Positions 26,874 through 45,908 of a stretch of DNA of 64,000 bases are shown one piece after another. Both the position numbers and the translations under genes were made by a program. The stretch covers positions 337 to 64,336 of the forward strand of contig JBJXFH010000198.1 in the NCBI GenBank assembly GCA_046155365.1, read 5' to 3'. Source of the stretch: Acidimicrobiales bacterium. GTDB taxonomy: Bacteria; Actinomycetota; Acidimicrobiia; Acidimicrobiales; CAIXPF01. The notes beneath the pieces are model-generated. The model searched no databases, was not told the DNA's origin, and saw nothing but the letters and a program-made list of their open reading frames with translations. Every line of letters begins with the position of its first letter. Within the stretch, counting starts at the first letter, position 1.

Positions 26874-27047
26874 GTCGACCTCCTAGCCCTACGAGTGTTT
26901 GTTCCGCTATCCATCTCCTCGATGCCGAGCGGGGTCATCGCCGGTGGCAGCGCTGGAGTGAATCATCGCGGTGGCCATCGAGGCCTCCTGGTCGCGTTGA
27001 TCGTGCCCACCTCGTCCCTTCTACGGCCAGGACGAGATGTCCTCACG

Positions 27048-29279
27048 ATGACGGCCAAAGGTCCCATGCGCGCCGACTGGAACCCGAGCGTCAGCGGCAA
27101 CAGGGCGCGTCAGCGCGGTTTGTGGGCCAATCTGATCACGGCGCGGTACCGGGCGGGTCGACAGGTTGACGCCCTTGACGCCTTTCAGCGCCTCCGCCGA
27201 TTGTTCGCCGAAGAACTCGGCATCGTGCCATCGCCAGAGCTCGTGGCGCTTGAAGGAGCGGTCCTGCGACACGATCCGTCGCTTTCGGCGTTCCCGTCGC
27301 CGGAAATGTCAGGGTCCGGCCCTTCGGACAGACCGGGGCACGTGCCGCGTCCACTCGACCGTCTCTTTGGCCGCGAGGTAGACCTGGCAGCCTTGTCTGA
27401 TCTGCTGGCCACCAAGCGGCTCATCACCGTGACGGGACCAGGTGGGAGCGGCAAGACACGCCTGGCGAACGAACTGGCCCTGGCCCACGCCCATTGCTTC
27501 AGCGCTGGTGCCTGGTTCTGCGAGCTGGCGCCGGTGCCGGATGCAACCAGCGTGGGCTTCACGGTGGCGGAACGGCTGGGCGTCAAACAGGCAGCGGGTC
27601 AATCCATCATCGAAAGTTTGGCTGACTGGGCCGCTCCACGCCGTTTGCTCATTGTGCTCGACAACTGCGAACACGTCAGCTCCGCCGCCGCCGAGCTCAC
27701 CGCAACCCTGCTGCGACGCTGTCCCGACCTGGTGGTGGTAGCGACGAGCCGCGAACCTTTGGACATTGCCGGCGAGCAGGTGTGGCGGCTCGCCCCGCTG
27801 CATGCCGGCGCGGTGGCGTTGTTCGAGGATCGCGCCGCACATGCCGGCAGCCCAATGAGTGATCGAGCGGCCGTCGAGGCGATCTGTGAACGGCTCGATC
27901 ACCTGCCGCTGGCCATCGAGTTGGCTGCGGCCCGATGCCGATTCCTCAGTCCCGCCGAGGTACTGGACCGGCTCGACCGCCAGATGGACGTGCTCAAGGA
28001 CCGTTCATGGGCGAAAGACGAGCGGCACGCCACCATGGCCGCCGCCATTGCCTGGTCCTATGACACGCTCGATGGGACCGAACAACGGATGTTGCGGGCC
28101 GCGTCGGTGTTCCGGGGTGGGTTTACGCTCGAGGCCATTGCCGACATCACCGCGGGTGACGTGTTCGCCGTGGCGGATGCGGTTGAAACGCTGGTCAATC
28201 GATCGTTGGTGAGCGTTGAACGGCGTGGCGTCGGGTCCCGCTACCGGATGCTGGAGCCGCTGCGGCAGTTCGCCGCCGATCGGCTTGAGGGCGAGGAGTC
28301 GGCGCGGTTACCGCAACGTCATGCCGCGTACTTCACCACCGTCGCCCGCCGGATCGGCATCGGTTATGAAAGCGCGGACCACTTGGCGGCGTTGGAGTTG
28401 TTCGAAGCCGAATTCGCCAACCTGCGACTCGCCCAGCAGTATGGCGTCAACACCGGAGACCTTGACGCAGCCTCGGCGCTGGTGGGGGGTATCGGGGAGA
28501 TCGCCGCCTACCGCATGCAGTTCGAGGTGCTCGCCTGGTTCGATGCCGAACAAGCCGCCTGGTCCCTTGCCAATACCGGCCACCTCGACCAGGTGATCAA
28601 CCACATCGACGCCGCGGTGCGTGGCGCGCTGGCGGCCCACCTCGACTACTGGATCATCGAAGCGGTGGCGTCGCGTTCGCAAATCGCGGCCCGTATCGGC
28701 GCCAGGCCCGACATCGCCAGCGGGGCCGGCCTCCAAGCGATCGCCAGAGCTGAGGCCTACGGTAACCAAAGCCAGCTCACCCTGGCCTACGCGCTGGGCC
28801 ACCACGCCGCCACCAGCAACGCCGAACGTCTGGAGTTGCTGCGCCGTGGCGTTGACTACGGCCAAGCCAGCGGCAACCTCCTCATGACCGCAGTGTGCGC
28901 CTATCAGCTCGGGGACTATCTGGCACGCGACGATGGAGCGCTCCACGAAGCAGCGGGCCCATTCCTGCTCGCTCTTGACCAGCTCAGCCGAGCAAGAGTG
29001 CTCACGCAGATCTGGAACGTGCTTGAGATCGTTGCCCAGCGATGGGCGGACCACAACCAACTCGAGCTGCCCCTGATCATCTGGGGTTGCGCCACTGCCC
29101 ACAATGTGCAACCGATCACTACGGTGCTTCCCACTACGCCCACGGCACGCGAACGTACGAATATCATCGCCGCCGCCCGAGCCAGACGCGATCAGACGTT
29201 TAGCCACGGACAGCGCCTCACCCTGGACCAACTCGTGGCCCACGTCAGCACCGAACTCACCCGCACCGCAGCCTCGTAG
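27048..29279 (+). CDS. BTAD-tail + NB-ARC/P-loop NTPase + TPR regulator lacking the wHTH DNA-binding domain
   Basis: LITARYRAGRQVDALDAFQRLRRLFAEELGIVPSPEL (end of BTAD), GREVDLAAL...VTGPGGSGKTRLA (Walker A) and LLIVLDNCEH (Walker B), then a helical repeat region. The 961-aa ORF opens at 26394, but that part is antisense to the DUF4386 gene. Confidence 0.7.
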   Translation: MTAKGPMRADWNPSVSGNRARQRGLWANLITARYRAGRQVDALDAFQRLRRLFAEELGIVPSPELVALEGAVLRHDPSLSAFPSPEMSGSGPSDRPGHVPRPLDRLFGREVDLAALSDLLATKRLITVTGPGGSGKTRLANELALAHAHCFSAGAWFCELAPVPDATSVGFTVAERLGVKQAAGQSIIESLADWAAPRRLLIVLDNCEHVSSAAAELTATLLRRCPDLVVVATSREPLDIAGEQVWRLAPLHAGAVALFEDRAAHAGSPMSDRAAVEAICERLDHLPLAIELAAARCRFLSPAEVLDRLDRQMDVLKDRSWAKDERHATMAAAIAWSYDTLDGTEQRMLRAASVFRGGFTLEAIADITAGDVFAVADAVETLVNRSLVSVERRGVGSRYRMLEPLRQFAADRLEGEESARLPQRHAAYFTTVARRIGIGYESADHLAALELFEAEFANLRLAQQYGVNTGDLDAASALVGGIGEIAAYRMQFEVLAWFDAEQAAWSLANTGHLDQVINHIDAAVRGALAAHLDYWIIEAVASRSQIAARIGARPDIASGAGLQAIARAEAYGNQSQLTLAYALGHHAATSNAERLELLRRGVDYGQASGNLLMTAVCAYQLGDYLARDDGALHEAAGPFLLALDQLSRARVLTQIWNVLEIVAQRWADHNQLELPLIIWGCATAHNVQPITTVLPTTPTARERTNIIAAARARRDQTFSHGQRLTLDQLVAHVSTELTRTAAS

Positions 29280-29431: not shown

Positions 29432-31690
29432 TCAGCCGGGTGTGTCACGCAGCAGATGGCATGCGACATTGGCCATACCGGCGCGTTTGAGGATCGGTAC
29501 CTCCACCTCACAGCGATCGGTGGTGGGCAGGGGGCATCGTGACCGGAAGGCGCAACCCTTGGGGGCGTTGAGCGGGCTGGGGGGTTCACCGGTGAGCGTT
29601 GGTGCCAGCCGTCCGGGTTCGGTGGTGGGCACCGCGGCCAGCAGACCCTGGGTGTAGGGGTGAGCGGGTTGATCGAACAGCGTGTCGGCGTCGGCGTGCT
29701 CCACGATGCGGCCCAGGTACATCACGGCCACTTCGTCCCCCAGGCGGCGGGCGGCGGCCAAATCGTGGGTGACCACCAGCAACGCCACCCCGAGTTCCGC
29801 TCGCAACTCCTCCAGCAACGCCAGCACCCGGGCCGCCAACGAGGCGTCGAGAGCGCTCACCGGCTCGTCGCACACCAGCAGGCTGGGGCCCGACGCCAGC
29901 GCCCGGGCGATGACCGCTCGTTGGCGTTGACCACCCGACAACGCACGGGGTTTGGCCCCCGCGGCGCGCCCGTCCAGCCCCACCCGGCCCAGCAACGCCA
30001 TAGCCGCGTCCACCCGCTCGGATCGCTCCACCCCGGCAAAGCGCAACCGCTCCACCACCTGGTCCAGCACCGACATCCACGGGGTGAGCGAGGAGCCGGC
30101 GTCCTGGAACACCAGCTGCGGCCGGGCCGCTCCTGTCGCCCACTGCACGGCACCGCTATCGGGTTTGAGTAATCCGGTGGCCATGCGCAACGTGGTGGTC
30201 TTCCCGCAACCGCTCTCACCCACCAGCGCCACCGCGCCCCCCGCCGGTACCACCAGCGAGACCTCCTCCACCGCCTTGAGCTTGGCCGGCGGGGTGCTCC
30301 ATCGGTCCCGCCGCAGCCGGAAGGACTTCGAGACGCGATCCAGGATCAGCGCCGGTTCCGCGGTGGGACCCTCGGACGGCTCCACCGTGGGGAACGGTCC
30401 TGCCCGGTCGCGGACCCGGATCGAGAGGGCCGGAGTGGGTCTCGTAACCATACCATCTGGTTGGGTATGTCCGTTGGGTACGGGCTTCACGGTGGGGAGC
30501 GCGGACGCTACGGCCAGGTGGTCGCGCTGCTCGCCGGCTGGCAGCGGAAAGAAGCAGGCCACCCCATCAGCGAGCTGGGGGAGGGCATCGGCGCAGGACG
30601 GTTGGGCGGAGCCGCAGCGAGCTTCGAAGGCGCACCCGGCGGATGGGACGCGAGGATCGGGGGGATTGCCGGGCAAGGGGTCCTGCGCCGGGCGTTGCCC
30701 GTCAATGCTGAGTCGGGCGTCGAGCAGCGCCCGGGTGTAGGGATGGCGGGGACGTTGCAGCACGTCCGCCGCGGATCCGATCTCACACAACCGCCCGGCG
30801 TACAGCACCGCGATGCGATCAGCGATGGACGCCGCCACTCCCAGGTCGTGGGTGACCAGCAACACCGCGCATCCGTGTTGGTTCCGCAATCGGTTCAACA
30901 ACAACACGATCTGGGCCTGGACGGACACATCCAGGGCGGTGGTGGGCTCGTCGGCAATAATCAGCTTGGGTGTGCCATCCACCCCGGTACCGGGCTCGTC
31001 GGTATGGCCCGAAGGGGGTTCCGCGGACACCGCCAGCGCGATCATGGCCCGCTGGCGTAGTCCGCCGGAGAGCTCGTGGGGAAACTGTTTCAGGCGGCGT
31101 TCCGGCTCGGGAACGCCGATCTCCCGCAGCCGGCGGGTGGCCGAGCTGACGGTGGATCCCTTCTCGGTCAACTGCCGGCCCACCCGCATGGTGGGGTTGA
31201 GCGAGGTCAACGGATCCTGGAACACTGCGCCCACGACCTGGCGCAGCACCCGTCGCCGTTGCCGCGCCGTACCGTTGAGCATGTCCACCCCGTCCACCAA
31301 CACCTGACCGCTGGTCTCCGGACGAGCCGCGGCCGGCAGTAGGCCCAGCAGCGTGGCGCCCAGCACCGACTTGCCGGAGCCCGATTCGCCAACCAGCGCC
31401 ACCACCTCGCCCGGAGCGATGTCGAGCGAAACCCCTCGCAAGGCGTGCACCAGCCCATCGGGACTGTGCAAGCTCACATGGAGATCCACCACCGCGGCCA
31501 CGGCTGATACCCCTGCCACTGCTGTGGCCGCTGTCGGCGCGGTAGCCGGCACGGTCGCGGATGCCGTGGCGCGCACTGAGGCGAAACCCGCCGCCTCGCG
31601 ACCGGGGGCGGCGGGGGAGGGGCGACCCGGCTCACCGGCGCCGGTCTCGATGGTGGCTCCCGGTTCGGGGGTGGCGCGCCTGAGGCTCAT
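29432..31690 (-). CDS. fused double ABC ATPase of a Dpp/Opp-type importer (DppD-DppF-like)
   Basis: Two Walker A motifs (GESGSGKS, GESGCGKT), two LSGG signatures (LSGGLRQR, LSGGQRQR) and C-terminal oligopeptide-type Cys-rich tails. The ATGA overlap with the permease gene supports the start at 31690. The N-terminal ~65 aa are low-complexity. Confidence 0.9.
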   Translation of the reverse strand: MSLRRATPEPGATIETGAGEPGRPSPAAPGREAAGFASVRATASATVPATAPTAATAVAGVSAVAAVVDLHVSLHSPDGLVHALRGVSLDIAPGEVVALVGESGSGKSVLGATLLGLLPAAARPETSGQVLVDGVDMLNGTARQRRRVLRQVVGAVFQDPLTSLNPTMRVGRQLTEKGSTVSSATRRLREIGVPEPERRLKQFPHELSGGLRQRAMIALAVSAEPPSGHTDEPGTGVDGTPKLIIADEPTTALDVSVQAQIVLLLNRLRNQHGCAVLLVTHDLGVAASIADRIAVLYAGRLCEIGSAADVLQRPRHPYTRALLDARLSIDGQRPAQDPLPGNPPDPRVPSAGCAFEARCGSAQPSCADALPQLADGVACFFPLPAGEQRDHLAVASALPTVKPVPNGHTQPDGMVTRPTPALSIRVRDRAGPFPTVEPSEGPTAEPALILDRVSKSFRLRRDRWSTPPAKLKAVEEVSLVVPAGGAVALVGESGCGKTTTLRMATGLLKPDSGAVQWATGAARPQLVFQDAGSSLTPWMSVLDQVVERLRFAGVERSERVDAAMALLGRVGLDGRAAGAKPRALSGGQRQRAVIARALASGPSLLVCDEPVSALDASLAARVLALLEELRAELGVALLVVTHDLAAARRLGDEVAVMYLGRIVEHADADTLFDQPAHPYTQGLLAAVPTTEPGRLAPTLTGEPPSPLNAPKGCAFRSRCPLPTTDRCEVEVPILKRAGMANVACHLLRDTPG

Positions 31691-32694
31691 CCGCGGCTCC
31701 GATTCCGTAGGCGGGGATCGGCCACAACTTGGCCGATGTCAACCAGCGCGTTCACCACGACATAGGCGGTGCCCATGACCAACACGATGCCGATCACCGC
31801 CGGGAAGTCCGCCTGCTGGATGGCCTGGGTGGTGTACAACCCCAGCCCGGGCCAGGCGAAAACCAACTCGATTACCACAACCCCGGTGAGCAGCAGGCCC
31901 ACCTGCAGGCCGGCCATGGCCAAGGTGGGTTGCAGCGAGTTGCGCAGACCGTGACGAAGCATGATCCGCCATTCGCCCAGCCCTTTGGACCGGGCGGTAC
32001 GGACGTGATCCTGCCGCAGCACCTCACTCAACGTACCGCGCAGTACCCGGCCGATGGCCACCGCCGGTCCGATGGCCAGACAGAAGCTGGGTAGCGCCAG
32101 ATGCCGCACCGTGCTCCAGAACCAGCTCCAATTGCGGTGCAGGACCGAATCGAGCAGGTAGAACCCGGAGGGACCGGCGGGTACCTTCATGCGGTCCAAC
32201 CGCCCCGAGGCCGGCAACCATCCGAGCTTTCGGTAGAACACCAACACCCCCAGGATGGCCACGAAGAACGTCGGGGCCGAGGCCGCTCCCAGCATCACCA
32301 CCCGGGCCACAGCTGAGGCCTTGCCGCCACGAGCGGACCACACCCCCAAGGCCAGGCCCATGCCCATGGCCAGCATCGCCGAGAACGCCGCCAGTTCGAA
32401 GGTGGGCTTGGCGAAACGGCCCAGGTCACTCACCACCGGCCGTTTGGTTCGTAACGAGGTGGAGAGATCACCTTGGCTCAACTTGCCAAGGAAGGTGACG
32501 TATTGGGTGGTGATGGGGTCGTTGTAGCCCAGTTCCTGGCGCTTCTGCTCGACCAGTTCGGGCGAGGCGTTGGCTCCCAGCGAGGCCCGCACCGGGTCCG
32601 CTGGCAGCACCGACTGGATCAGGAACACGGCCATGCTCAACACCAGCAGCACCCCCACCAGGCTGACCAAGCGGCGCATGACGAACTCGGTCAC
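31687..32694 (-). CDS. ABC transporter permease (DppB/OppB-like)
   Basis: The N-terminus MRRLVSLVGVLLVLSMAVFLIQSVLPADPV is typical. An EAA-like loop is present (TARSKGLGEWRIMLRHGLRNSL). Confidence 0.9.
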   Translation of the reverse strand: MTEFVMRRLVSLVGVLLVLSMAVFLIQSVLPADPVRASLGANASPELVEQKRQELGYNDPITTQYVTFLGKLSQGDLSTSLRTKRPVVSDLGRFAKPTFELAAFSAMLAMGMGLALGVWSARGGKASAVARVVMLGAASAPTFFVAILGVLVFYRKLGWLPASGRLDRMKVPAGPSGFYLLDSVLHRNWSWFWSTVRHLALPSFCLAIGPAVAIGRVLRGTLSEVLRQDHVRTARSKGLGEWRIMLRHGLRNSLQPTLAMAGLQVGLLLTGVVVIELVFAWPGLGLYTTQAIQQADFPAVIGIVLVMGTAYVVVNALVDIGQVVADPRLRNRSRG

Positions 32695-32697
32695 CGC

Positions 32698-33570
32698 TCA
32701 GGCCTCCGTCAGATCGGCCACGGCGTCCCCGCACAGATTGGCCACGAACGCCAGCAGGCACACACCCAGCGCCGGGAACACCGGGATCCACCACCCGGTG
32801 AACAGGTAGGTCATGCCCCGGGCGCTCATGGCCCCCAGCTCCGGGGCCGGCGCCGGGGAACCGAGACCCAGGAAGGACAGCCCGGACAGCGTGATGAGCA
32901 GGGCGCCCACGTCCAAGCTGGCAGTGACCAGCACCGTGCCCACCGTACCGGGCAGTACGTGCCGGCGGGCCACGGTGAACCAGCCGGCGCCACCCATGCG
33001 GGCCGCCTCGATGTGGGATCGGCTCATGATGGCCCGTACCTCTGATCGCACCACCCGGGAGTAGAACGGCCACCACACCACCATCACGGCCAGCAGGGTG
33101 TTACGCAGGCTGGGCCCCAACGCTGACACCACCGCCAGCACCAGCAGCGGGCCGGGTAGGGCCAAGAACACGTCGGTGATGCGCATGAGCAGGCCGTCAA
33201 CCCAACCGCCCACCATGCCGGCCACCGCGCCGATGGAACCGCCGATGATCACTCCCGAGGCGATTACCCCGAACGCCGAGAACCACGAGGTGCGCATACC
33301 GGTCAGTACCCGGCTGAGCACGTCCCGGCCCTGCTCGTCAACGCCCATCCACTGCCCGGCGCCGGGGGCCTGCAGCGGGGCGCCCACCGCGGTGGTGACC
33401 GAGTGGGGCAGGTACAGCGGCACCAACACCAAGGCCACGGTGAGCGCCACGAAGGACGCCAGCGCCACCTTCTCCAGGTGACCCAGCGAACGCAACCGGG
33501 CCGAGGTGGCCGAGCCCAGCGGCACCCGGCGCCCGAATAGACCGCTGCGGGCCAGCGTCACTGAAGCCAT
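32698..33570 (-). CDS. ABC transporter permease (DppC/OppC-like)
   Basis: Six-TM BPD-type permease with the loop HIEAARMGGAGWFTVARRHVLP. Confidence 0.9.
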   Translation of the reverse strand: MASVTLARSGLFGRRVPLGSATSARLRSLGHLEKVALASFVALTVALVLVPLYLPHSVTTAVGAPLQAPGAGQWMGVDEQGRDVLSRVLTGMRTSWFSAFGVIASGVIIGGSIGAVAGMVGGWVDGLLMRITDVFLALPGPLLVLAVVSALGPSLRNTLLAVMVVWWPFYSRVVRSEVRAIMSRSHIEAARMGGAGWFTVARRHVLPGTVGTVLVTASLDVGALLITLSGLSFLGLGSPAPAPELGAMSARGMTYLFTGWWIPVFPALGVCLLAFVANLCGDAVADLTEA

Positions 33571-35207
33571 CAGGGCGCCTTGCGGGTCAGCCCGACCGGT
33601 TCCAGGTTGAACGGTGCCGGTGACTTGTGGGTGAACCCACCGATATCGGGTCCGGCCACGAACACGTCGCGCACGTCGGCCAGGGTGATGAACGTGGCAT
33701 CATCCACCCACAGATCACCGGCTTGCCCGTACAGGGACAGCATCTTGTCCCGATCAGTGCTGGAAAGACCCTCATCGATCAGGGCGTCCGCTGCGGGCAC
33801 GCTGGCTCCCAGGTAGTTGAGGGCCCCGCCGCTGTAATGGAAGATCCGGGCCCAGGTGTCGGGGTGAGCGGCGTCAGGGTTCACCGTTCCCACGTACACG
33901 TTGGGTCGGGTGTCGGGTTGGTTCACGTACTCGAACACCGTGGCCAGCACGTCGGATTTGATGGTGACCTTGAACCCGGCCTCCGTCAGCACCGTTTGGA
34001 TGGCCTCCGTCAGGCGCTGGTCATTGGTGGAGCCGGTGGTGTAACCCAAAAGGATGGTGCGATCGGCCTCAGGCAACTTCGAAACCATCGCCTTGAGCGG
34101 CTCCACGCCCTTGTAGCTATAGGCATCGTCGGCCATCGCGTCGGGTAGCTCGCCCACCGGGTACAGCTGCTTGGAGACCACTGCATCCTCGCCGAACACC
34201 TGCGCCACCAGCGCCTCACGATCCATCGCTTCACGCAGAGCGACCCGCACGGCCTTGTTCTTCAGCGCGCCCCGGTTGGGATCAACCCAGATCATGGTCT
34301 TGAACAACACCGGGAAGTCAATGACCTGGAAACCCTCCTTGGTGCGGAACTCCTTGGTGGTGGAGGACGGTACCTGGTGCAAGATGTCCAGATCGCCGCC
34401 TTCGAGCTGCAACTGCTGGGTGGCGGCGTCGGGGACGATGTTGATCACGATCTCCCGGAAGAACGGCTTGTCACCCCAGTAGCTGTCGTTGCGGGAGAGG
34501 ACGTAACGCTGACCCAGGCTGAACTCGCTCAGCGCGTAGGGGCCGGTACCGGCGGAGTTGGACTTGATCCAATCCTGCGCTGCGTCGCCGTCCTTCTCGT
34601 TGGCGGCGATGAGGGCCGGGCTGACCGCCTTGGGTCCGTACGGCGCAGCCAGATAATCCAGAAACGCTGAAACCGGTTTGGTCAACTTCACCACGAACGT
34701 CAGCGGGTCCGGCGTCTCATAACCGGTCACGTCAGCCAGCATGTACGCCGGCGCCGAGTTCACGCCGGTGCGCCGCTCGAAGCTGAACTTCACGGCCTCG
34801 CTGTCCATCGGGGTGCCGTCCACGAAGGTCACCCCCGAGCGCAGCTTGAACGTGTACCTGAGCCCGTCGGCGCTCACCTCGTAGCTCTCCGCCAGCCACG
34901 GTTCGATGGCATTGTCGGTGCTCTTCCCGCCGGGAGACTCCGGGACGTAGCGCAACAGACCCTCGTACGTGGACAGCACCACCTGATTGCCCTCAATCTC
35001 GTAGAAGATGTCGGGGTCGGGCACCTGCATGTCGGTCCAAAAGGCCATGCGCAACACATCGGCCTCACCGGCAGCGGTTTGCGTGGCGTCCTCGTTGGCG
35101 GTGTCACTGCTCGAGCACGCGGCCAGGAACAGTGCCATCACCGCGCCTATCGCCAGGAGCCACCGCCTACCCCGGGGAAGGGTGCGTCGCTGTGCTGCAG
35201 TCGTCAC
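33570..35207 (-). CDS. ABC transporter substrate-binding lipoprotein, family 5 (peptide/nickel/opine type)
   Basis: Lipobox LFLAACSS. The size (545 aa) and motifs fit SBP family 5 (WGDKPFFREIVINIVPDAATQ...). Confidence 0.9.
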   Translation of the reverse strand: MTTAAQRRTLPRGRRWLLAIGAVMALFLAACSSSDTANEDATQTAAGEADVLRMAFWTDMQVPDPDIFYEIEGNQVVLSTYEGLLRYVPESPGGKSTDNAIEPWLAESYEVSADGLRYTFKLRSGVTFVDGTPMDSEAVKFSFERRTGVNSAPAYMLADVTGYETPDPLTFVVKLTKPVSAFLDYLAAPYGPKAVSPALIAANEKDGDAAQDWIKSNSAGTGPYALSEFSLGQRYVLSRNDSYWGDKPFFREIVINIVPDAATQQLQLEGGDLDILHQVPSSTTKEFRTKEGFQVIDFPVLFKTMIWVDPNRGALKNKAVRVALREAMDREALVAQVFGEDAVVSKQLYPVGELPDAMADDAYSYKGVEPLKAMVSKLPEADRTILLGYTTGSTNDQRLTEAIQTVLTEAGFKVTIKSDVLATVFEYVNQPDTRPNVYVGTVNPDAAHPDTWARIFHYSGGALNYLGASVPAADALIDEGLSSTDRDKMLSLYGQAGDLWVDDATFITLADVRDVFVAGPDIGGFTHKSPAPFNLEPVGLTRKAP

Positions 35208-35250
35208 GTCTGTTGACCTCCGTGGTGGGATTCGGGAAGAAGTGAAACCA

Positions 35251-36027
35251 TCAGTGCAAGACCGTGGCCCCGTTGACGCAGATCGATTGGCCGGTCACGA
35301 AACCGCCGGGGTCCGTGGCCAGCCAGGCGACCACCTCGCCCACATCGGCGGGGGTTACGAACCGACCGACGGGTATGTCAGCCAGGTAGCGTTGGCGGAC
35401 GGTGTCCCGCGTGTGGCCGGTGAGGTGCATCTCGGTGGCCCATTCCTGTTCGTTCATGTCGGTCTCGGCGGTGCCGGGGCAGACCGCGTTGACCGTGATG
35501 TTGAGGGCGGCCAGTTCCAGCGCCGCGGTCTGGGTCATGGCCCGCACCGCGAACTTGGTGGCCGAATACGCCCCAAGCAACGGGAAGGCCACCAGCGCCG
35601 CGTCACTGGCCACGTTGATGATCCGTCCCGGTCGCCCGGCGGCCTTCATCACCGTCACCGCCGCTTGCATACCGTGAAGTACGCCAAGGACGTTGGTGTC
35701 GAACAGGTGGCGGAACGTGTCATCGCCGGTGTCGAGCAGGGGTCCGATGGTGGAGACCCCGGCGTTGTTGACCCAGATGTCGAGCGAGCCGAACTGTTCC
35801 AGCGCCGCCTCAGCCAGCTCCGGGCACTGTCCGGGCTGGGCCACGTCGGCGGCGAGGACCACGGCGCGCCCGCCCACCTGGCGGCAACGCTGGGCCGTTT
35901 GTTCGGCGGCATCAGCGCTGGTGTTGTGGCGGTGGTTGATGACCACGTCGATGCCGCGTTGGGCCAGGGACACGCAGATGCCAGCGCCCAGGCCCCGGCT
36001 GGCCCCGGTAACCACCGCCGCGGTCAT
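35251..36027 (-). CDS. short-chain dehydrogenase/reductase (SDR)
   Basis: TGASRGLG cofactor motif, NNAG and catalytic YSATK. The ATG at 36027 overlaps the upstream stop (ATGA). Confidence 0.85.
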   Translation of the reverse strand: MTAAVVTGASRGLGAGICVSLAQRGIDVVINHRHNTSADAAEQTAQRCRQVGGRAVVLAADVAQPGQCPELAEAALEQFGSLDIWVNNAGVSTIGPLLDTGDDTFRHLFDTNVLGVLHGMQAAVTVMKAAGRPGRIINVASDAALVAFPLLGAYSATKFAVRAMTQTAALELAALNITVNAVCPGTAETDMNEQEWATEMHLTGHTRDTVRQRYLADIPVGRFVTPADVGEVVAWLATDPGGFVTGQSICVNGATVLH

Positions 36028-36716
36028 CGTCCGGCCTCCAGCAACCAACGGAAGGGGGCCAGATGGCGGGCGTCGCCGGTGAAGAGCCGTTCGGGATGCC
36101 ATTGCACGCCCAGGACCGCACGGCTGTCGGTGGACTCGACAGCCTCGATGACCCCGTCCTCGCTCCACGCCGTGGCCACCAGCTGGGGTCCGGGGTCCGC
36201 CACCGCCTGGTGGTGGATGGAGTTGACCCGTTGGGCGCCGGCCAGCGCCGTTTCAGCCAGCGAGCCGGGTGTGGCCCGAATACCGTGTTTCGGTTCGTAC
36301 TGTTCCTCGAGGTTCCAGTGGCCCTCGTACCCGGCGGTGGGAAGGTCCTGTACCAGCGTTCCTCCCAATGCCACCGCCAACAGTTGCGCACCACGGCAGA
36401 TGCCCAGCACCGGTCGTCCTTGCGCGATGGCCCACCGGCTGATCTGCAGCTCCACGTGGTCTCGTTCGGGGTCCACCTCGTCCAGGGTGTCGGTGGTGGG
36501 CGCGGCCCGGTAGGAGGCGGGATCCACATCGCCACCACCGCTCAGGAGCACCGCATCGCAGCGTTCCAGTAACGGTTGCGGATCGGACCGACTCCACGCC
36601 GCCCCCGCCGGGACGAGCACCGGATGGGCGCCCAGGCGGGCCAGGGCATCCACATAGCCCCGATGCACCGAGTACCGCTCCTCGGGGTGACGGCCGATCA
36701 GCACCGCGACCAACAT
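36024..36716 (-). CDS. class-I glutamine amidotransferase-like gamma-glutamyl hydrolase (PuuD / peptidase C26 family)
   Basis: LSGGGDVDP, GICRGAQLLAVALGGTL (nucleophile Cys), HHQA and LGVQWHPE are present. The start at 36716 overlaps the GS-like stop by 1 nt. The ORF opens at 36779. Confidence 0.8.
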   Translation of the reverse strand: MLVAVLIGRHPEERYSVHRGYVDALARLGAHPVLVPAGAAWSRSDPQPLLERCDAVLLSGGGDVDPASYRAAPTTDTLDEVDPERDHVELQISRWAIAQGRPVLGICRGAQLLAVALGGTLVQDLPTAGYEGHWNLEEQYEPKHGIRATPGSLAETALAGAQRVNSIHHQAVADPGPQLVATAWSEDGVIEAVESTDSRAVLGVQWHPERLFTGDARHLAPFRWLLEAGR

Positions 36717-38101
36717 CAGAACAGGTTCAGGTACTTGGCGCGTTCCCATTCGCTGACCTGCGCGTGGTACTCGTTCCATTCGTTGTTTTTCAGCTCGGCA
36801 TATTCCTTCACGAAGGTGGCGGGGAACACCTCGTGGGTCAACGGATCAGCCTCGAAGGCGTCAATGGCCTCCAGCAGATTGCGTGGTAGCCGCACGGCGT
36901 CGGTCTTGGTCGACCAGTCATAGGTGGCCCGCTCAACGGGGTCACCGGGATCGAGGCCCTCGGCAATGCCTTCCAGCCCGGCGGCCAGGATGAACGCCGC
37001 CGCCAGGTAGGTGTTGGAGGAGGAGTCCACGGCCCGGTTCTCCAACGCCGGGCGGTTGCGTGGCAGCCGGAGCATGCAACTACGGTTGTTGTCCCCATAG
37101 GCCGCCCAGATCGGCGCCCAAGAGATGGTGCCGTCGGAAAGGCGGGGTTGCAGCCGCTTGTAGGAGTTCACGGTGGGGGTGGCCACTGCGGCGATGGCCC
37201 GGGCGTGGCGCATGACCCCGGCGATGAACCCGTAGGTCAGCTTGGACCATCCGGTGGTGGCGCCGTGGTCCCGGAACAGGTTGGCGCCATTGTCCAGACT
37301 CTCCAGGCTCATGTTGAAGTGGTTCCCGGACCCCCATCCCTCGGTGTAGGGCTTGGGCATGAACGTCACCGCCAGGCCGTTCTGTTTGGCCACCTGTTTG
37401 GCCAGGAGCCGGAACAGGGTGATCTTGTCGGCCATGGCCAGGGCGTCGTCATAGGTGAAGTCAAACTCGAACTGCGCGTCGCCTCCCTCGTGATCGAAGC
37501 TGAACAGCCCGAACCCCAGTTCCTCCATGTATTTGGCCATGGGATCAAGGAATCGCAGCGCATCCAGGGTTGATTCGATGTCATAGGCCGGGGTGGGGTT
37601 GGCCTTGCCCGATGCCGCCATCGGCTCCAGATAGCCCTTGACCTCGCCCCTGCCGCCGAGCTCGGTGGCCACGGGGTCAAAGCAGTAGATCTCCGTTTCT
37701 ACACCGAGGTTGAACTTCCAGCCGGCATCAGCGACCCGGGCCAGTTGTTTCTTGAGGATGGTGCGGGGGCACAACGGCCAGTCGGTGGTGCCACCGAAGC
37801 GCAGATCGGCGGCCATCCAGGCGATGCGACGGTCCCACGGCAGGATCTTCAGCGAGGCCGGGTCCGGCAGCGCCACGCACTCGTCCTCGTTGGGCGTCAT
37901 CGATCCCAGATCGCCCATACCGCGTGGTGTGTAACGCTCCGAGCCGGCCAGCAGGTTGGGGAGGTGATCGATCGGCACCATCTTGGACTTGGACCGACCC
38001 TGGATGTCGATGAAGCCGCCCAGGCAATACTCCACGCCCTGTGCCTTGAGCGATGCGGCCAGGGCGCGGTGGTCCTCGGTTATGTCGTGCGTGGTATCCA
38101 T
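36716..38101 (-). CDS. glutamine-synthetase-like gamma-glutamyl-amine ligase (GlnA2-4/PuuA type)
   Basis: GS catalytic-domain motifs are present: FEFDFTYDDAL, AVTFMPKPYTEGWGSGNHFNMSL and NRSCMLRLP. Confidence 0.9.
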   Translation of the reverse strand: MDTTHDITEDHRALAASLKAQGVEYCLGGFIDIQGRSKSKMVPIDHLPNLLAGSERYTPRGMGDLGSMTPNEDECVALPDPASLKILPWDRRIAWMAADLRFGGTTDWPLCPRTILKKQLARVADAGWKFNLGVETEIYCFDPVATELGGRGEVKGYLEPMAASGKANPTPAYDIESTLDALRFLDPMAKYMEELGFGLFSFDHEGGDAQFEFDFTYDDALAMADKITLFRLLAKQVAKQNGLAVTFMPKPYTEGWGSGNHFNMSLESLDNGANLFRDHGATTGWSKLTYGFIAGVMRHARAIAAVATPTVNSYKRLQPRLSDGTISWAPIWAAYGDNNRSCMLRLPRNRPALENRAVDSSSNTYLAAAFILAAGLEGIAEGLDPGDPVERATYDWSTKTDAVRLPRNLLEAIDAFEADPLTHEVFPATFVKEYAELKNNEWNEYHAQVSEWERAKYLNLF

Positions 38102-38898
38102 GGTCCTCCTTGGGGTCCATAGGCGCCACCCAATGCGGGTGGTGGGGCGACGCCGAGCGGTGGTTCCTCCCGGCGGCCGCGTTCGATGAGATCCGCCAGT
38201 GCCGATACCGTGAGCTCCACCAGTTTGTGGCCCAACTCGGCGGTGGCTTCCGACGGCCGGCCGGTGACCCCGTTTCGGCTTAGCGATGCCGCCGTGTAGC
38301 GAAAGACCAACCCGGCGGTACGGTCGGGGTCATCGGCGGACTGCATGGCGGTGGTGTCAACCAACTGCGGTGCCAGGGCCAACATGAGGGCGGTCTCGGC
38401 CCGGTTGGCGTGCACGTCCTCGCCGTCAGCCACACACTCCGAGCTCACCGTGGGATCCAGGCCGTACCAGCTGACGTACGCCACCCGCAGATCCGGCCGG
38501 TGAAGGCGCAGATGGTCCGTCGCCATGGACAGCGCCGCCACGTTGTTGAGATGCGCGTTCAGGAAGATCAGCCGTCGCAACCCGCTGGTGGCAGCCCAGG
38601 CGGCAACCTGCGCCACGGTGGCGGCCAGTAACTCCGGCGGAAAGGACAGCGTGCCCGGCAGGCTGGTGCCGTGGCCGTAGCTGGCCCCGAACGTCAGCGC
38701 CGGAAGGACCGGGCATCCGGCCCGCTCGGCGGTCAGCTCGCACAGCCGTTCGGCGATGATGGTGTCCGTTCCCGATGGCAGATGCGGGCCGTGCTGTTCG
38801 ATGGCGCCCACCGGCACCAACCCCACTTCTCTGCCCCCGTGGCGCTGGTGGTAGTCCAGCGCCGGGGAGGGGAGGTCAAACCATCGCTCGAAGGGCAC
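38080..38898 (-). CDS. creatininase-family amidohydrolase
   Basis: VPVGAIEQHGPHLPSGTDTII is the metal-binding signature of the creatininase/MftE family. The gene overlaps the GS-like gene by 22 nt. Confidence 0.8.
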   Translation of the reverse strand: MPFERWFDLPSPALDYHQRHGGREVGLVPVGAIEQHGPHLPSGTDTIIAERLCELTAERAGCPVLPALTFGASYGHGTSLPGTLSFPPELLAATVAQVAAWAATSGLRRLIFLNAHLNNVAALSMATDHLRLHRPDLRVAYVSWYGLDPTVSSECVADGEDVHANRAETALMLALAPQLVDTTAMQSADDPDRTAGLVFRYTAASLSRNGVTGRPSEATAELGHKLVELTVSALADLIERGRREEPPLGVAPPPALGGAYGPQGGPWIPRTT

Positions 38899-39007
38899 CG
38901 GTGATGTCTACGGGATTTCGATTTCGTATCCGTTTCCCTGAGGTGCTGGTTCGTGAACGGCATCTGACCACAATCTGTCAACGTTCCGGGGTTGCTACGG
39001 TGACCTG

Positions 39008-39769
39008 ATGAACGCATCGTCCAGACGGGTGGGAAGGCCCCGGGTGAACCCGCTGCCCCGTGATCAGTCGCCGCGGGAGGAGGTGGTGGCGGTGGCCAGC
39101 CGCATGTTTGCGCTGCACGGGTTCGCGGCGGTGAAGATGAGCGAGATCGCCGCTAGCTCCGGATTGCGTCAGTCTTCGATCTACTATTACTTTAATAATA
39201 AAGAAGAGATCCTGGCGGAGATCGTGGGTGAAGTGAACCGGTTGGGCCTGGAGCGGCTGCTGCAGGTCAATTCCCAAGGGGAAAGCGCGGGTCTGCGGCT
39301 GTTCCGGACGCTGCGGTTCGATGCGGAGATGTTGTGCCGGCTGCCCTATGACGTCAATGAGATCCTGCGGATGACCGCGCTGCAAGAGGAGCGATTCTCC
39401 CGCTACTGGAGCGATCGGCAGGACCTGAATGACGGGGTGGAGGCGTTGGTGGCCGAGGGCATCGCCGCCGGGGAGTTCCTTGAGCTTGACGCCCGTCTGG
39501 CGGCCCTCACGCTGCTGTCCAACGATGAGGCGGTGCAGAACTGGTACCGACCTCTGGGGACGCATCGGTTGCAGGGGGACTACCAACCGCACGAGATCGG
39601 TGCCTTCCTGGCCACCATGGCGTTGCAGGCGTTGCTGGCCGATCGGCGGCGGTTGCCGCTCATCCGGCGCCTGGCGGACCGCCTCGACGCGGACCTCGAC
39701 ACTGACCTCGACACTGACCTCGATGAGCGCTCAGCCGGTGCGCTCCTCCAGCGCCCACAACAGCCCTGA
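39008..39769 (+). CDS. TetR-family transcriptional regulator
   Basis: N-terminal HTH: FALHGFAAVKMSEIAASSGLRQSSIYYYFNNKEEIL. It is divergent from the creatininase operon. The acidic repeat tail reads DADLDTDLDTDLDE. Confidence 0.85.
   Translation: MNASSRRVGRPRVNPLPRDQSPREEVVAVASRMFALHGFAAVKMSEIAASSGLRQSSIYYYFNNKEEILAEIVGEVNRLGLERLLQVNSQGESAGLRLFRTLRFDAEMLCRLPYDVNEILRMTALQEERFSRYWSDRQDLNDGVEALVAEGIAAGEFLELDARLAALTLLSNDEAVQNWYRPLGTHRLQGDYQPHEIGAFLATMALQALLADRRRLPLIRRLADRLDADLDTDLDTDLDERSAGALLQRPQQP
39677..39727 (+). repeat. in-frame 12-bp tandem repeat (GACCTCGACACT-like) in the TetR 3' end
   Basis: The tract gaccgcctcgacgcg / gacctcgacact / gacctcgacact / gacctcgatgag encodes (D-L-D-T)n. Confidence 0.85.
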
Positions 39770-39976
39770 CCACGCCACCGACACGCCGGGCCCGTGATCG
39801 GCGGCCACCTCATGGGGTGGAGCAGCCGGCAACGCCGCCGCCTCTGGTCCCAGCAGCAGGCCGTCGTGCCAGCTTCCGTTGATCAGTTGGCGGTAGGCGG
39901 CATGATAGTGGCCACTGTGGGCCCTGCTGTCCCGCACGGTCAGGCAATGGGGTCCCACCCGCACCAGGCGGGCCTG

Positions 39977-40372
39977 TCAGTCCAACGTCCGCATCGACAG
40001 CCGTGGGGTGGTGGCCCCAGCCTCCCGTCGCCATACCTCAACGTATGGTGTGGGCTGACCGCCGAAGGTGAAGATCCCGGTTTCGATGAGGTCCTCGCCG
40101 TCCCAGGTGATCGAGCCCTCATCGGCTTCGATCACCTGATGCAGGTCCAGGTCCCGATGCCAGCACAGCGCGGTCCCGTCCCAGGTGGTGACCCCGGCAA
40201 AGGACAACGGGGCCGACATCGGCTGGGGGTCGGTGTCCTCAAGCGGCACCCGCATATCGGCAAAGCCCTCGCCGGCTTGCAGCCACAGCACATGTTGGGT
40301 TTCTGTCGGTGGGCCGCCATCGAGGGCCAGGGATCGGCGGCGCCACAACCCCACGAAACGCTCCGGTATCAC
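39977..40372 (-). CDS. hypothetical 131-aa protein, translationally coupled to the Rieske oxygenase (beta-barrel/lipocalin-like?)
   Basis: ATGA overlap with the upstream oxygenase gene. The composition is coding-like (FVGLWRRRSLALDGG...VLWLQAGEGFADMRVP...). I recognise no named motif. Confidence 0.5.
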   Translation of the reverse strand: MIPERFVGLWRRRSLALDGGPPTETQHVLWLQAGEGFADMRVPLEDTDPQPMSAPLSFAGVTTWDGTALCWHRDLDLHQVIEADEGSITWDGEDLIETGIFTFGGQPTPYVEVWRREAGATTPRLSMRTLD

Positions 40373-41469
40373 GCCAGGTGGCCCAACAGCAGTCGGTGGA
40401 ACTGCGTGATCGGTGCTTCGTGGGCGCTGGCCAATGGCCCCACCTCGAAGCGGGGGGAGCGCAACACCCGCTGGATGCGTTCCACCGCGCTGCCGTCCTC
40501 GTCCCGCAAAACCGCCAACAACATGGCCTCCGCTTCCTCATCGAAGCGCGAACCTGGCTCGGCCTTCACCCTGATGTCCAGCACGCTGGTGATGGGCCCG
40601 GTGGGTACCACCTGGAAGGTCAGCCACATGTTCTCCGAGGAGGATGTGGGCACGTTCGGGAAGATCAGGTTGGCCCGCAGCACCTCTCGCTCCTCGTCAG
40701 GTAGGTGGCCGATGGGCAACATGGCGCTGCCCTGCTGGGGGTCCTGGTGGGCCCGCAGGCGTTCCTCGGACACCCAGTGAGGACCCACCCAGGTGTGGTC
40801 GAACTGCGCGTGGTCGTACATGCCCAGGGATTGCTCGTGCAGGTACCACAGGTGCAGCACGTCAACGTGGTTTTCGATGTACAGCTTCCAGTTGCACGCC
40901 AGCGGTACCTGGATGCGGGCCACCTGGGGAAGCTCGTCGGGCTGAAACGGACCGATGCGGTTGGGGTACGCACCCAACCACTGCGACAGTGGCGCCGCGC
41001 CCGGGTCCGGATGCACGAAGATCAGCCCGGCCCACACCGCCACCGATACCGCCAGCAAACCCCACTGCGCAGGGTCCACCTCAGCGAACTGGGCGCTGCG
41101 CTGAGGGATCCGAACCAGCGTCCCGTCTTCGGCTGCGAACTCCCACCCGTGGTACGGGCAGCGCACGGTGCCCCCTGGCGCCTGGGCTCCGCCGTCGCTC
41201 AACCGCCCGGGGCCGCACGCCAGCGCCATACCCCGGTGGCGGCACATGTTCAGGTAGCCGCGGATCTCACCATCAGCGGCTCGAACCAACAGGACGGGCT
41301 CCGGACCCACCTGCACCGGGAGCACGTCCCCGGCATGGGGCAGGTCCTCCACTGCCGCCACCAGGTTCCAGATTTTGCCGAACAGCAGCCGCTGCTCGCG
41401 CTCATACCATCCGGTATCGAAATAGGCCTCCTTGGGCAGCAGGAAGGTTGCCGGTTCGGCCAGCGTCAT
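40369..41469 (-). CDS. Rieske [2Fe-2S] non-heme-iron oxygenase, alpha subunit
   Basis: Rieske motif CRHRGMALA...CPYHGWEF. Mononuclear-iron motif NWKLYIENHVDVLHLWYLH. Confidence 0.85.
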   Translation of the reverse strand: MTLAEPATFLLPKEAYFDTGWYEREQRLLFGKIWNLVAAVEDLPHAGDVLPVQVGPEPVLLVRAADGEIRGYLNMCRHRGMALACGPGRLSDGGAQAPGGTVRCPYHGWEFAAEDGTLVRIPQRSAQFAEVDPAQWGLLAVSVAVWAGLIFVHPDPGAAPLSQWLGAYPNRIGPFQPDELPQVARIQVPLACNWKLYIENHVDVLHLWYLHEQSLGMYDHAQFDHTWVGPHWVSEERLRAHQDPQQGSAMLPIGHLPDEEREVLRANLIFPNVPTSSSENMWLTFQVVPTGPITSVLDIRVKAEPGSRFDEEAEAMLLAVLRDEDGSAVERIQRVLRSPRFEVGPLASAHEAPITQFHRLLLGHLA

Positions 41470-42590: not shown

Positions 42591-42715
42591 CGAAACGAAT
42601 GCTCCCCTGTGAGGAGGCGTCGGGTCAAGGTAGTCAAGGAGATGTTCACCTGGGGGAAACGAACGGCCGGCTGGTTGGCTGGGACCGCTGGCAGGAATGT
42701 GCCACAGTGCCGGGC

Positions 42716-45767: not shown

Positions 45768-45908
45768 AATTGGCCCCCCAATCCGAGACGGCCCCGATGG
45801 TAGATCGGAGCAAAGTACGCCGCCGGGGTGTGACCGAACGTGTGACAAAGCGGGTGACATCGTGATCGTGGTGTGGATCTTGGTCCGGCACGGCGCGAGA
45901 GTGGGGCG

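Follow-up and report, generated by a model that had tools for sequence, protein, structure and literature searches.

A creatininase-like hydrolase and a glutamine synthetase-like ligase in a TetR-associated operon of an Acidimicrobiales bacterium: a proposed route of guanidine assimilation

Background

Only two routes of guanidine degradation are recognised in the papers and reviews of 2025, namely Ni-dependent GdmH and the Gca/CgdAB pathway. This paper concerns an operon of eight genes (29432–38898, minus strand) within a stretch of 64,000 nucleotides from an Acidimicrobiales bacterium, contig JBJXFH010000198.1; the whole stretch is called the window below. The operon joins a creatininase-like hydrolase and a glutamine synthetase (GS)-like ligase to a peptide-type ATP-binding cassette (ABC) importer, and has relatives in other genomes (numbered with the prefix L) that stand behind guanidine riboswitches. 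From comparison of these loci, the operon with its neighbourhood is best read as an island for the uptake and assimilation of guanidine and methylguanidine; its central chemistry is a proposal.

Among described systems, the riboswitch-led guanidine operon of Vreelandella boliviensis (PMC12508155; Guanidine-I/II riboswitches) encodes MgdH, a 2-oxoglutarate (2OG) dioxygenase that hydroxylates methylguanidine, and MgdL, an N-(hydroxymethyl)guanidine lyase. Operons orthologous to that of the window resemble this Gca operon in their Guanidine-I control, in an ABC importer that depends on a solute-binding protein (SBP), in an ATP-dependent first enzyme, in the presence of an oxygenase with an MgdL-family lyase, and in having CgdAB or allophanate hydrolase genes as frequent neighbours. 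They differ in that a GS-like ligase and a creatininase-like hydrolase are found where the biotin carboxylase stands (as in L086), that the hydroxylase is of Rieske, ethylene-forming enzyme (EFE)-like or TauD-like type rather than MgdH, and that the importer is of Opp/Nik type; the window copy is, moreover, TetR-regulated. The cyanobacterial GdmH/GimABC system (PMC12704784) is likewise under Guanidine-I control (seen here in the relatives), includes an ABC importer and serves to scavenge nitrogen. GimABC, a proven guanidine importer, belongs to the NitT/TauT family, and genes of this type flank the pair in L007 and L041; the window transporter is of another family, and there was no ureohydrolase or Ni maturase among the genes annotated over approximately 24–48 kb.

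Three further comparisons concern the enzymes. A GS-like ligase beside a peptidase C26 hydrolase is common to the operon and to the Puu (PuuA/PuuD), AtdA1/AtdA2, NpaA1 and Pseudomonas Ipu routes, and Rieske oxygenases lie near the ligase in the aniline (Atd) and 1-naphthylamine (Npa) systems also. Unlike these, the family described here has an optional C26, a ligase of the GmaS branch, a Rieske protein of the alpha-only kind accompanied by an MgdL-like lyase, and guanidine as the signal in relatives. The ligase is comparable with GmaS of the N-methylglutamate pathway (structures 7cql and 9qur), from which it is separated by features given below and by its creatininase-like partner and the guanidine riboswitch of its relatives; no mgs or mgd genes of that pathway were present among the annotated neighbours, no search being aimed at them. 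The hydrolase shares its fold family with creatininase (Pseudomonas putida, 1j2t) and with the other PF02633 members MftE, ArfB and IolN, and is unlike the other creatininase-family members sampled in being paired with a GS-like gene.

Results

Conservation of the enzyme pair

The creatininase-like gene (38080–38898, minus strand; PF02633, 200 bits) is the first of the operon and is followed by the GS-like gene (36716–38101, minus strand; Gln-synt_C, 312 bits), whose product is predicted to be a gamma-glutamyl ligase of GmaS type. Ninety-six loci of the creatininase subfamily were assembled from a genome scan, from look-ups of encoding contigs, and from a metagenome scan with a C-terminal alignment specific to the subfamily. 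When the genome scan was run with the alignment over its full length, matches to the generic EQHGPHLP motif predominated and only 9 of the 80 loci were true members, while a metagenome scan with the single window protein used patterns too specific to find any relatives, which the C-terminal alignment did find. Gene counts across the 96 loci are limited by short contigs.

In 80 of the 96 loci, a GS-like gene was the immediate neighbour of the creatininase-like gene and shared its strand, with the order creatininase-GS in 61 and GS-creatininase in 19; most of the 16 loci without an adjacent GS-like gene stop at a contig edge. By comparison, C26 was present in 29 loci, the family-5 SBP (SBP5) in 28, the short-chain dehydrogenase/reductase (SDR) in 22 and TetR in 20, while a Rieske gene was linked in 34. 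These frequencies identify the creatininase-like/GS-like pair as the nearly invariant core, which the GS/C26 couple is not. The initial annotation had taken a gamma-glutamyl amine route involving C26 and SDR as the defining feature of the operon, and had placed hydrolysis first, exposing an amine; the former is not borne out by these counts, and the latter order is not established, given that both gene orders occur.

The pair was found in Acidimicrobiia, Kineosporiaceae, Mycobacterium (where the arrangement is Rieske-GS-creatininase-TetR), Akkermansiaceae and Ectothiorhodospiraceae, and spans Actinomycetota, Verrucomicrobiota and Gammaproteobacteria. More than 1,500 relatives of the creatininase-like protein were recovered at E ≤ 1e-20, mostly from metagenome-assembled genomes of Acidimicrobiales and other Actinomycetota. 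Other members of the creatininase family, sampled at about 70 loci, were unpaired; the sole exception, L009, had a weak GS-like match (28% identity) situated 3 kb away on the opposite strand.

Real exceptions to pairing within the subfamily were few. One was a creatininase-subfamily gene seen at L090:4858–5661 and at L097:1671–2474 (68% identity over the matched part), which had no GS-like gene for more than 4 kb on either side.

The complete arrangement also recurred. In L081, all eight families followed one another as in the window, again with a TetR gene in divergent orientation, the creatininase-like protein being 83% identical to that of the window, and the eight families were found once more in the aptamer-led operon of L147; the arrangement is therefore not a chance juxtaposition, and conservation of the cluster in relatives, a survey of which the initial annotation had proposed, was confirmed. 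Variants were seen in L082, L083, L085, L086 and L087, through absence of SDR or C26 or through addition of an isochorismatase-family hydrolase, which replaces or joins the SDR in L082, L083, L085 and L087.

Guanidine-I riboswitches in related loci

In a Kineosporiaceae genome (L084), a bare creatininase-GS unit has an aptamer of the Guanidine-I class 37 nt upstream, at 9866–9964; this matched RF00442 at 78.9 bits, the Rfam gathering threshold being 63 bits, and has all signature nucleotides. A motif scan followed by Rfam produced 18 further aptamers above the threshold in 12 metagenomic loci. A covariance model (R1) was built from the aptamers and identified 21 in 15 of 87 subfamily loci, of which 19 pass the Rfam threshold; the aptamer of L114, absent from the training set, was found by this model only. 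The same model found no aptamer in 1.29 Mb taken mainly from around other creatininase-family genes.

The genes behind these aptamers varied from the pair alone to the whole set seen in the window. The aptamer leads creatininase-GS alone in L084 and L098. It is followed by GS-creatininase-C26-SDR-SBP5 in L147 (aptamer at 1374–1491) and L164, the former complete with the ATPase and both permeases and the latter ending with its contig at SBP5, and partial window-type sets followed an aptamer in L103, L114, L130 and L155. In six loci (L092/93, L126/139, L133 and L137), a 2OG oxygenase lies between the aptamer and creatininase-GS; its best relative in the PDB is deposited as an ethylene/succinate-forming enzyme, and according to the 2025 guanidine literature the EFE family frees guanidine from arginine. 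A second aptamer, in L093, L126, L137 and L139, heads a transporter operon of ATPase-permease-permease-agmatinase-like-isochorismatase-SBP5-MBL (MBL denoting a metallo-beta-lactamase-fold gene), in which the first gene is an orthologue of the fused ATPase of the window and both permeases are orthologous to those of the window. The window SBP was 49% identical to its orthologues in L147 and L164 and 36% identical to those in L093 and L139. From this context, the ligand of the SBP would be guanidine or a small substituted guanidine.

The TetR gene and the aptamer were never observed in the same locus among the 96. GS-like proteins averaged 63.7% identity between the TetR and aptamer types of locus and 67% within types, and the window enzyme was 66–67.5% identical to aptamer-type enzymes. 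Because identity across types approximates that within types, the GS-like proteins of both are assigned to one orthologous family. The window TetR is interpreted as holding the place that the guanidine riboswitch has in other lineages.

The GS-like ligase

The GS-like protein matched the GmaS model TIGR03105 best among NCBIfam models (437.3 bits), under the cut-off of 469.6, and did not reach the cut-off of the GlnA equivalog TIGR00653 (283 bits against 429). Its nearest structures were the glutamate-methylamine ligases 7cql (RhGmaS) and 9qur, at 278 and 266 bits. Its pocket was mapped on RhGmaS, with residue roles taken from PMC7948447; in GS, Asp50' binds and deprotonates ammonium (PMC7948447). 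This position is Thr58 in the window protein, and Thr in 57 of 58 proteins linked to a creatininase-like gene. The flap Glu (Glu304 in Bacillus subtilis, Glu327 in enteric GS) is replaced by Trp328 in all 58. The absence of Asp50' and the Trp in the flap are shared with GmaS, as are five of the seven residues of the methylamine pocket (Tyr147, Asp177, Glu179, Glu186 and Lys30'); in all 58 proteins, however, Gln175 of GmaS has become Ser, and Asn188 has become Asp. Residues binding ATP and phosphate are retained.

Replacement of Asp50' by Thr and of the flap Glu by Trp indicates that the protein is not a glutamine synthetase, and it is classified as GmaS-like yet not GmaS; this removes a possibility that would have undermined the initial annotation. 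A signature of ten residues (K40, T58, Y173, S201, D203, E205, E212, D214, F215 and W328) recurs in the creatininase-linked proteins of three phyla, each position being kept in 56–58 of 58, the exceptions consisting of an alignment gap or Leu for Phe (position 202). Since the pocket signature is kept across the 58 proteins, all creatininase-linked members probably share one amine substrate. The Q175S and N188D replacements would provide a roomier and more acidic pocket, such as would fit guanidinium, and guanidine is suggested as that amine.

The GS-like protein had more than 6,000 database matches at E ≤ 1e-60, a count that extends to GS relatives at large: structures of GS and of GmaS matched at about 1e-57 and 1e-82 respectively. 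Among the best 120 matches of each protein of the pair, those that were named were called 'creatinine amidohydrolase' or 'glutamine synthetase' only.

The creatininase-like hydrolase

The hydrolase was under the NCBIfam cut-offs for both creatininase (TIGR04448, 112.6 against 235) and MftE (TIGR03964, 126.8 against 172). The ligands of the binuclear metal centre are retained (E34, H36, D45, H116 and E168), as are H163 and W144, the latter equivalent to Trp154 of 1j2t; E34, H36, D45, H116, E168 and H163 align to Glu34, His36, Asp45, His120, Glu183 and His178 of creatininase, and the metal ligands and catalytic His are invariant in the protein alignment. The residues that bind creatinine are not conserved: the H-Y-E motif containing Tyr121 and Glu122 is H-L/F-N/G, and the stretch with Trp174 is missing. 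The protein is accordingly judged not to be a creatininase proper. No mycofactocin gene was present among the annotated neighbours in the window or the related loci, although no search was aimed at mftA-D. Catabolism of creatinine or N-methylhydantoin was considered and rejected; hydantoinase, cyclase and isochorismatase genes that suggested it were present in L082 alone, and the creatinine-binding residues are absent.

The Rieske/MgdL-like module and other neighbours

Upstream of the TetR gene, on the strand of the operon, lie an MgdL-like gene (39732–40372, minus; Pfam 'HRI1' in relatives) and two genes for alpha-only Rieske non-haem-iron oxygenases (40369–41469, minus, with Rieske and Ring_hydroxyl_A domains; 41466–42590, minus), the second a paralogue 46–47% identical to the first. 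The MgdL sequence from the supplement of PMC12508155 was used as a query. In BLASTP, the window protein was 31% identical to V. boliviensis MgdL over 137 aa (E = 2e-10) and its orthologue in L081 was 27% identical over 175 aa (E = 2e-9); the catalytic D49-x-R51 of MgdL aligned to D39-M-R41 of the window protein, and D-x-R was invariant in four homologues. No relative of the MgdL-like protein was found in the PDB by sequence. The best NCBIfam match of the first Rieske protein was GbcA, at 93.5 bits and far under the cut-off, and its PDB matches cover the Rieske domain alone, and so are uninformative about the substrate. In the 34 loci with a linked Rieske gene, this was usually followed directly by an MgdL-like gene, and the two were often in the pair's own operon, for instance in L086, L101 and L115. 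These associations point to the Rieske protein as a hydroxylase of N-alkylguanidine (methylguanidine) that would feed the MgdL-family lyase.

An MBL-fold hydrolase gene (42599–43486, plus; Lactamase_B, 70 bits) is divergent from the Rieske genes; in L081 and L082 the synteny of the operon extends to it and to both Rieske genes, its orthologues at the same position being 67–71% identical, and MBL genes are also part of the aptamer-led transporter operons. Only 8 nt separate the annotated start codon of the MBL gene from that of the second Rieske gene, and one of the two may be wrong. The MBL gene beside the Mycobacterium cluster proved to be RNase Z, and hence unrelated.

Several related loci contained components of known guanidine pathways. 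CgdA and CgdB, the DUF1989 pair that makes up carboxyguanidine deiminase, were above NCBIfam cut-offs in L086 (UAAP1/2), allophanate hydrolase was above its cut-off in L087, and a gene of biotin carboxylase type (1205 aa) was present in L101. In L086 (6757–12184), L151 (4128–9065) and L100, which starts inside cgdA and thus limits the view upstream, cgdA-cgdB-Rieske-(MgdL)-creatininase-GS formed one unit, with no carboxylase in the available sequence. Such units are consistent with the pair taking the place of the carboxylase, and the substrate of the CgdAB-like pair might be a product of the GS-like enzyme and not carboxyguanidine. In the 64 kb of the window, tblastn with CgdA, CgdB and AtzF queries found nothing; the carboxylase itself was not a query. 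GFA-family genes were present in L006–L008. The set of Rieske, GmaS-like and GFA genes had also suggested schemes based on dimethylformamide/N-methylformamide, on trigonelline/homarine, or on arylamine dioxygenases, which were dropped given the riboswitch and MgdL evidence.

Urease genes lie just upstream of the aptamer-led 2OG oxygenase-creatininase-GS unit in L126 and L139. Rfam matches to 5_ureB_sRNA (69 bits) were located inside these urease genes at L126:2377–2670 and L139:6288–6581, and probably reflect mere similarity of urease coding sequence.

The NMT1/NitT-TauT-type SBPs of L007 (5001–6134; Akkermansia) and L041 (7022–7999; Ectothiorhodospiraceae) were 64% identical to each other, whereas the flanking enzymes of these loci were 42–46% identical to those of the window, a much lower value. 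This suggests that the transporter, or the cluster as a whole, was transferred laterally.

Operon anatomy, accessory enzymes and importer

The initial annotation listed eight coupled genes behind a divergent TetR gene. All were found at their places; eight open reading frames on the minus strand run from 38898 to 29432, with families matching that list by Pfam and NCBIfam, and the TetR gene is at 39008–39769 (plus; TetR_N and TetR_C_24). The window has 63–70% G+C. After the enzyme pair come a peptidase C26 (36024–36716, minus; PF07722, 188.8 bits), a gamma-glutamyl-amide hydrolase of PuuD/SpuA-like kind and accessory, a classical SDR oxidoreductase, also accessory (35251–36027, minus; adh_short, 180 bits), a family-5 solute-binding lipoprotein (33570–35207, minus; SBP_bac_5, 236 bits; lipoprotein signal LAAC), a DppC/NikC-like permease (32698–33570, minus; BPD_transp_1), a DppB/NikB-like permease (31687–32694, minus; BPD_transp_1_N and BPD_transp_1), and, last, a fused double ATPase of DppD-DppF type (29432–31690, minus; two ABC_tran and two oligo_HPY domains).

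The genes overlap at most junctions (creatininase/GS by 22 nt, GS/C26 by 1 nt, C26/SDR by 4 nt, SBP/permease by 1 nt and permease/ATPase by 4 nt) and are otherwise separated by 43 nt (SDR/SBP) and 3 nt (permease/permease). Terminator-like sites within the operon were not above the shuffled expectation (3 against 4.7 expected). To judge from this anatomy, co-transcription of the eight genes is likely. A search for RNA evidence found the window sequence only in DNA runs, from biofilter and drinking-water metagenomes.

TetR orthologues in L081 and L082 were 68–73% identical to that of the window. A block of 31 nt, GGAAAC(G/A)GATACG(A/C)AATCGAAATCCCGTAGA (38907–38937, minus), which lies 9–40 nt upstream of the first start codon of the operon, is nearly invariant among the window, L081 and L082, while the remainder of the TetR spacer has diverged; it could serve as an operator or as a leader element. 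No inverted repeat and no sigma-70-like promoter were found in the spacer, and no clear palindrome in the block.

The C26 protein matched Lin1909, SpuA-like 7d4r and PuuD 6vtv in the PDB and carries the GICRG and WHPE motifs of the Cys-His-Glu triad; at 83.7 bits, against a cut-off of 266 for the PuuD equivalog, it is placed in the C26 family but is considered not to be PuuD itself. The SDR reached no NCBIfam equivalog cut-off. By its parts (SBP_bac_5, two BPD_transp_1 permeases and ATPases with oligo_HPY tails) the importer belongs to the peptide/opine/nickel class (PepT, Dpp/Opp type). The nearest models to the SBP, NikA and opine binders, were all far under cut-off, and neither the SBP nor the permeases reached any substrate-specific NCBIfam equivalog. 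The fused ATPase passed only two models, NF008453, which covers a dipeptide ATP-binding subfamily in general, and the equivalog TIGR02770 for NikD (343.4 against 318.7), the latter via three separate stretches of the doubled protein.

Two large regulators with BTAD, AAA and TPR domains (SARP/LuxR-like) stand on either side of the island, at 26394–29279 (plus) and 45873–47768 (plus), and an acyl-ACP desaturase-like gene (FA_desaturase_2; 43668–44630, minus) lies past the MBL gene. No connection of these flanking genes with the operon was seen.

Discussion

The proposed pathway

The link between this module and guanidine metabolism is well supported, because orthologous operons and the orthologous transporter are led by guanidine aptamers, because guanidine-pathway genes are neighbours, and because of homology to MgdL. 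The operon of the window is read, with somewhat more confidence than doubt, as a TetR-controlled version of a widespread guanidine-responsive module for the uptake and assimilation of guanidine-type nitrogen compounds.

The following sequence of events is envisaged. The SBP5-type ABC system would bring in guanidine, methylguanidine or both (step 1). The Rieske oxygenase, in place of the 2OG enzyme MgdH, and the MgdL-like lyase would demethylate methylguanidine to guanidine and formaldehyde (step 2). The GS-like enzyme would then use ATP to join the gamma-carboxyl of glutamate to guanidine, giving gamma-glutamylguanidine (5-oxo-arginine); the inert guanidinium would thereby be activated, in parallel with its carboxylation by guanidine carboxylase (step 3). 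Creatinine is a cyclic acylguanidine and is opened by relatives of the creatininase-like enzyme; in step 4, this binuclear metallohydrolase would split the acylguanidine to glutamine and urea, or to gamma-glutamylurea and ammonia. AtdA2 is a safety valve for gamma-glutamylanilide, and C26 might play a similar part here, or might hydrolyse the residual gamma-glutamyl amide produced in step 4, the SDR being accessory (step 5). TetR would serve as the sensor instead of a riboswitch (step 6). Step 2, by homology to a characterised lyase, is thought probable; steps 1 and 3 to 5 are offered tentatively. It is possible, and is put forward with some reserve, that with this pair a third route of guanidine assimilation, unrecognised until now, runs through gamma-glutamylguanidine and its cleavage by a creatininase-type enzyme, the supply coming from an Opp-like importer of guanidine and from a Rieske methylguanidine hydroxylase with an MgdL-family lyase.

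Several observations weigh against this interpretation. With a pKa of approximately 13.6, guanidinium is a poor nucleophile, and its acceptance by the ligase is a prediction. By analogy with creatininase, the hydrolase could return gamma-glutamylguanidine to glutamate and guanidine, which would be a futile cycle. It is not obvious what an SDR would do in the breakdown of guanidine, and the part of TetR as a sensor is conjectural. The window contained no aptamer at the Rfam gathering threshold or with R1 at E ≤ 0.1, and the guanidine link for its operon rests on orthology. Among the aptamers themselves, that of L086 is sub-threshold (56.8 bits against 63) and that of L114 depends on the model built here, while L092/L093 and L126/L139 are near-duplicates, which reduces the aptamer-bearing populations to approximately 13 independent ones. 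The MgdL-like gene of the window is broken by an in-frame TGA at 39977–39979, which is present also in contigs of two independent biofilter runs; it falls at a non-conserved position, the part downstream is still conserved, and the codon may have arisen recently by nonsense mutation, or may be read through. Finally, a full Gca/CgdAB/AtzF pathway adjoins the pair in L101, L102, L127 and L148, and so the pair may act on something other than free guanidine.

Alternative explanations

Methylguanidine could instead be split to methylamine and urea by the creatininase-like enzyme, acting as an amidinohydrolase. The GmaS-like ligase would trap the methylamine as gamma-glutamylmethylamide, which the Rieske and MgdL-like proteins would demethylate to glutamine and formaldehyde, with C26 as a glutaminase. 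In favour of this, the ligase has glutamate-methylamine ligases as its closest characterised relatives and retains most of their pocket, and the Rieske, MgdL-like and GFA genes would all suit an N-demethylation that releases formaldehyde. Nevertheless, this is thought unlikely. Known methylguanidine amidinohydrolases are described as of ureohydrolase type, not creatininase type; the minimal aptamer-led units consist of the pair, with neither oxygenase nor lyase; and Gln175 and Asn188, common to both solved GmaS enzymes, are changed in all 58 proteins. Carbinolamides can need a lyase, as does N-(hydroxymethyl)guanidine (PMC12508155), but in the one case tested the Guanidine-I aptamer binds guanidine and not methylguanidine (PMC12508155), and this route would never yield guanidine.

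In the scheme of the initial annotation, the cell takes up an amide, a lactam-like or a peptide-like compound, from which the creatininase-family enzyme exposes a primary amine, which is gamma-glutamylated, oxidised by the SDR and freed by C26. The gene order of the window (hydrolase, ligase, C26, SDR) follows such a scheme, the importer is of peptide/opine type, and known gamma-glutamylation routes are defined by pairs of GS-like and C26 genes (PMC11335346). Yet the family can do without C26 and SDR, 19 loci have the reverse order of GS and creatininase, and in Verrucomicrobiota and Gammaproteobacteria the transporter that accompanies the pair is of NitT/TauT type. Guanidines are indicated by the control through riboswitches, by neighbours from guanidine pathways and by the homologue of MgdL, and in relatives the Opp-like transporter is itself behind a guanidine aptamer, amid guanidine and methylguanidine genes; the substrate class of that scheme is not supported, and the scheme as a whole appears distinctly improbable.

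It is still harder to maintain that hydrolysis comes first, with the creatininase-like enzyme cutting free guanidine to urea and ammonia and the GS-like protein serving as a dedicated ammonia-assimilating synthetase. Two genes under a guanidine aptamer would suffice for this, urease genes lie near the pair in L126 and L139, and RhGmaS does accept ammonium weakly (PMC7948447). But Asp50' and the flap Glu, which bind and deprotonate ammonium in GS, are absent from the ligase, GlnA is already present in cells, creatininase-type sites attack an acyl carbon and not free guanidinium, and the sole direct hydrolase of guanidine known is a Ni-dependent ureohydrolase. Least credible of all is gamma-glutamylation of guanidine for tolerance or storage with later release by the hydrolases, for, while many guanidine riboswitches govern detoxification genes and both a ligase and hydrolases able to reverse the ligation are encoded, the operon has an importer of high-affinity type and no exporter, and its neighbours (CgdAB, allophanate hydrolase, urease) are assimilation genes.

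Uptake and assimilation of guanidine-type compounds, with gamma-glutamylguanidine as the proposed intermediate, remains the preferred interpretation. In the library that was searched, no paper dealt with a creatininase or creatinine amidohydrolase together with GS-like, gamma-glutamyl or Rieske proteins, nor with gamma-glutamylguanidine, in agreement with the opinion of the initial annotation that no characterised pathway has a gamma-glutamylation pair led by a creatininase-type hydrolase and fed by a Dpp/Opp-type transporter. The core enzyme pair belongs to no described pathway; that 'creatininase' genes are found with ykkC RNAs may, as a plain association, already be on record in the list of ykkC-associated genes published by Nelson et al. 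in 2017. The chance that the system of the window is a new guanidine pathway is substantial.

Conclusion

That guanidine is a widespread source of nitrogen and a metabolite of stress has become clear only in recent years; four classes of riboswitch sense it, and its users include cyanobacteria and ammonia-oxidising bacteria. It also arises from the drug metabolite guanylurea, and its turnover in biofilter and drinking-water settings may matter for nitrogen removal. The interpretation presented here predicts peptide-type ABC importers that carry guanidines and Rieske enzymes that demethylate methylguanidine. If true, it would explain a riboswitch-controlled gene set that has so far had no assigned role, and would add a new type of reaction to the GS superfamily and a new class of substrate to the creatininase family; thousands of genes now labelled 'glutamine synthetase' or 'creatinine amidohydrolase' would belong to the new route, and their annotation would need correcting.

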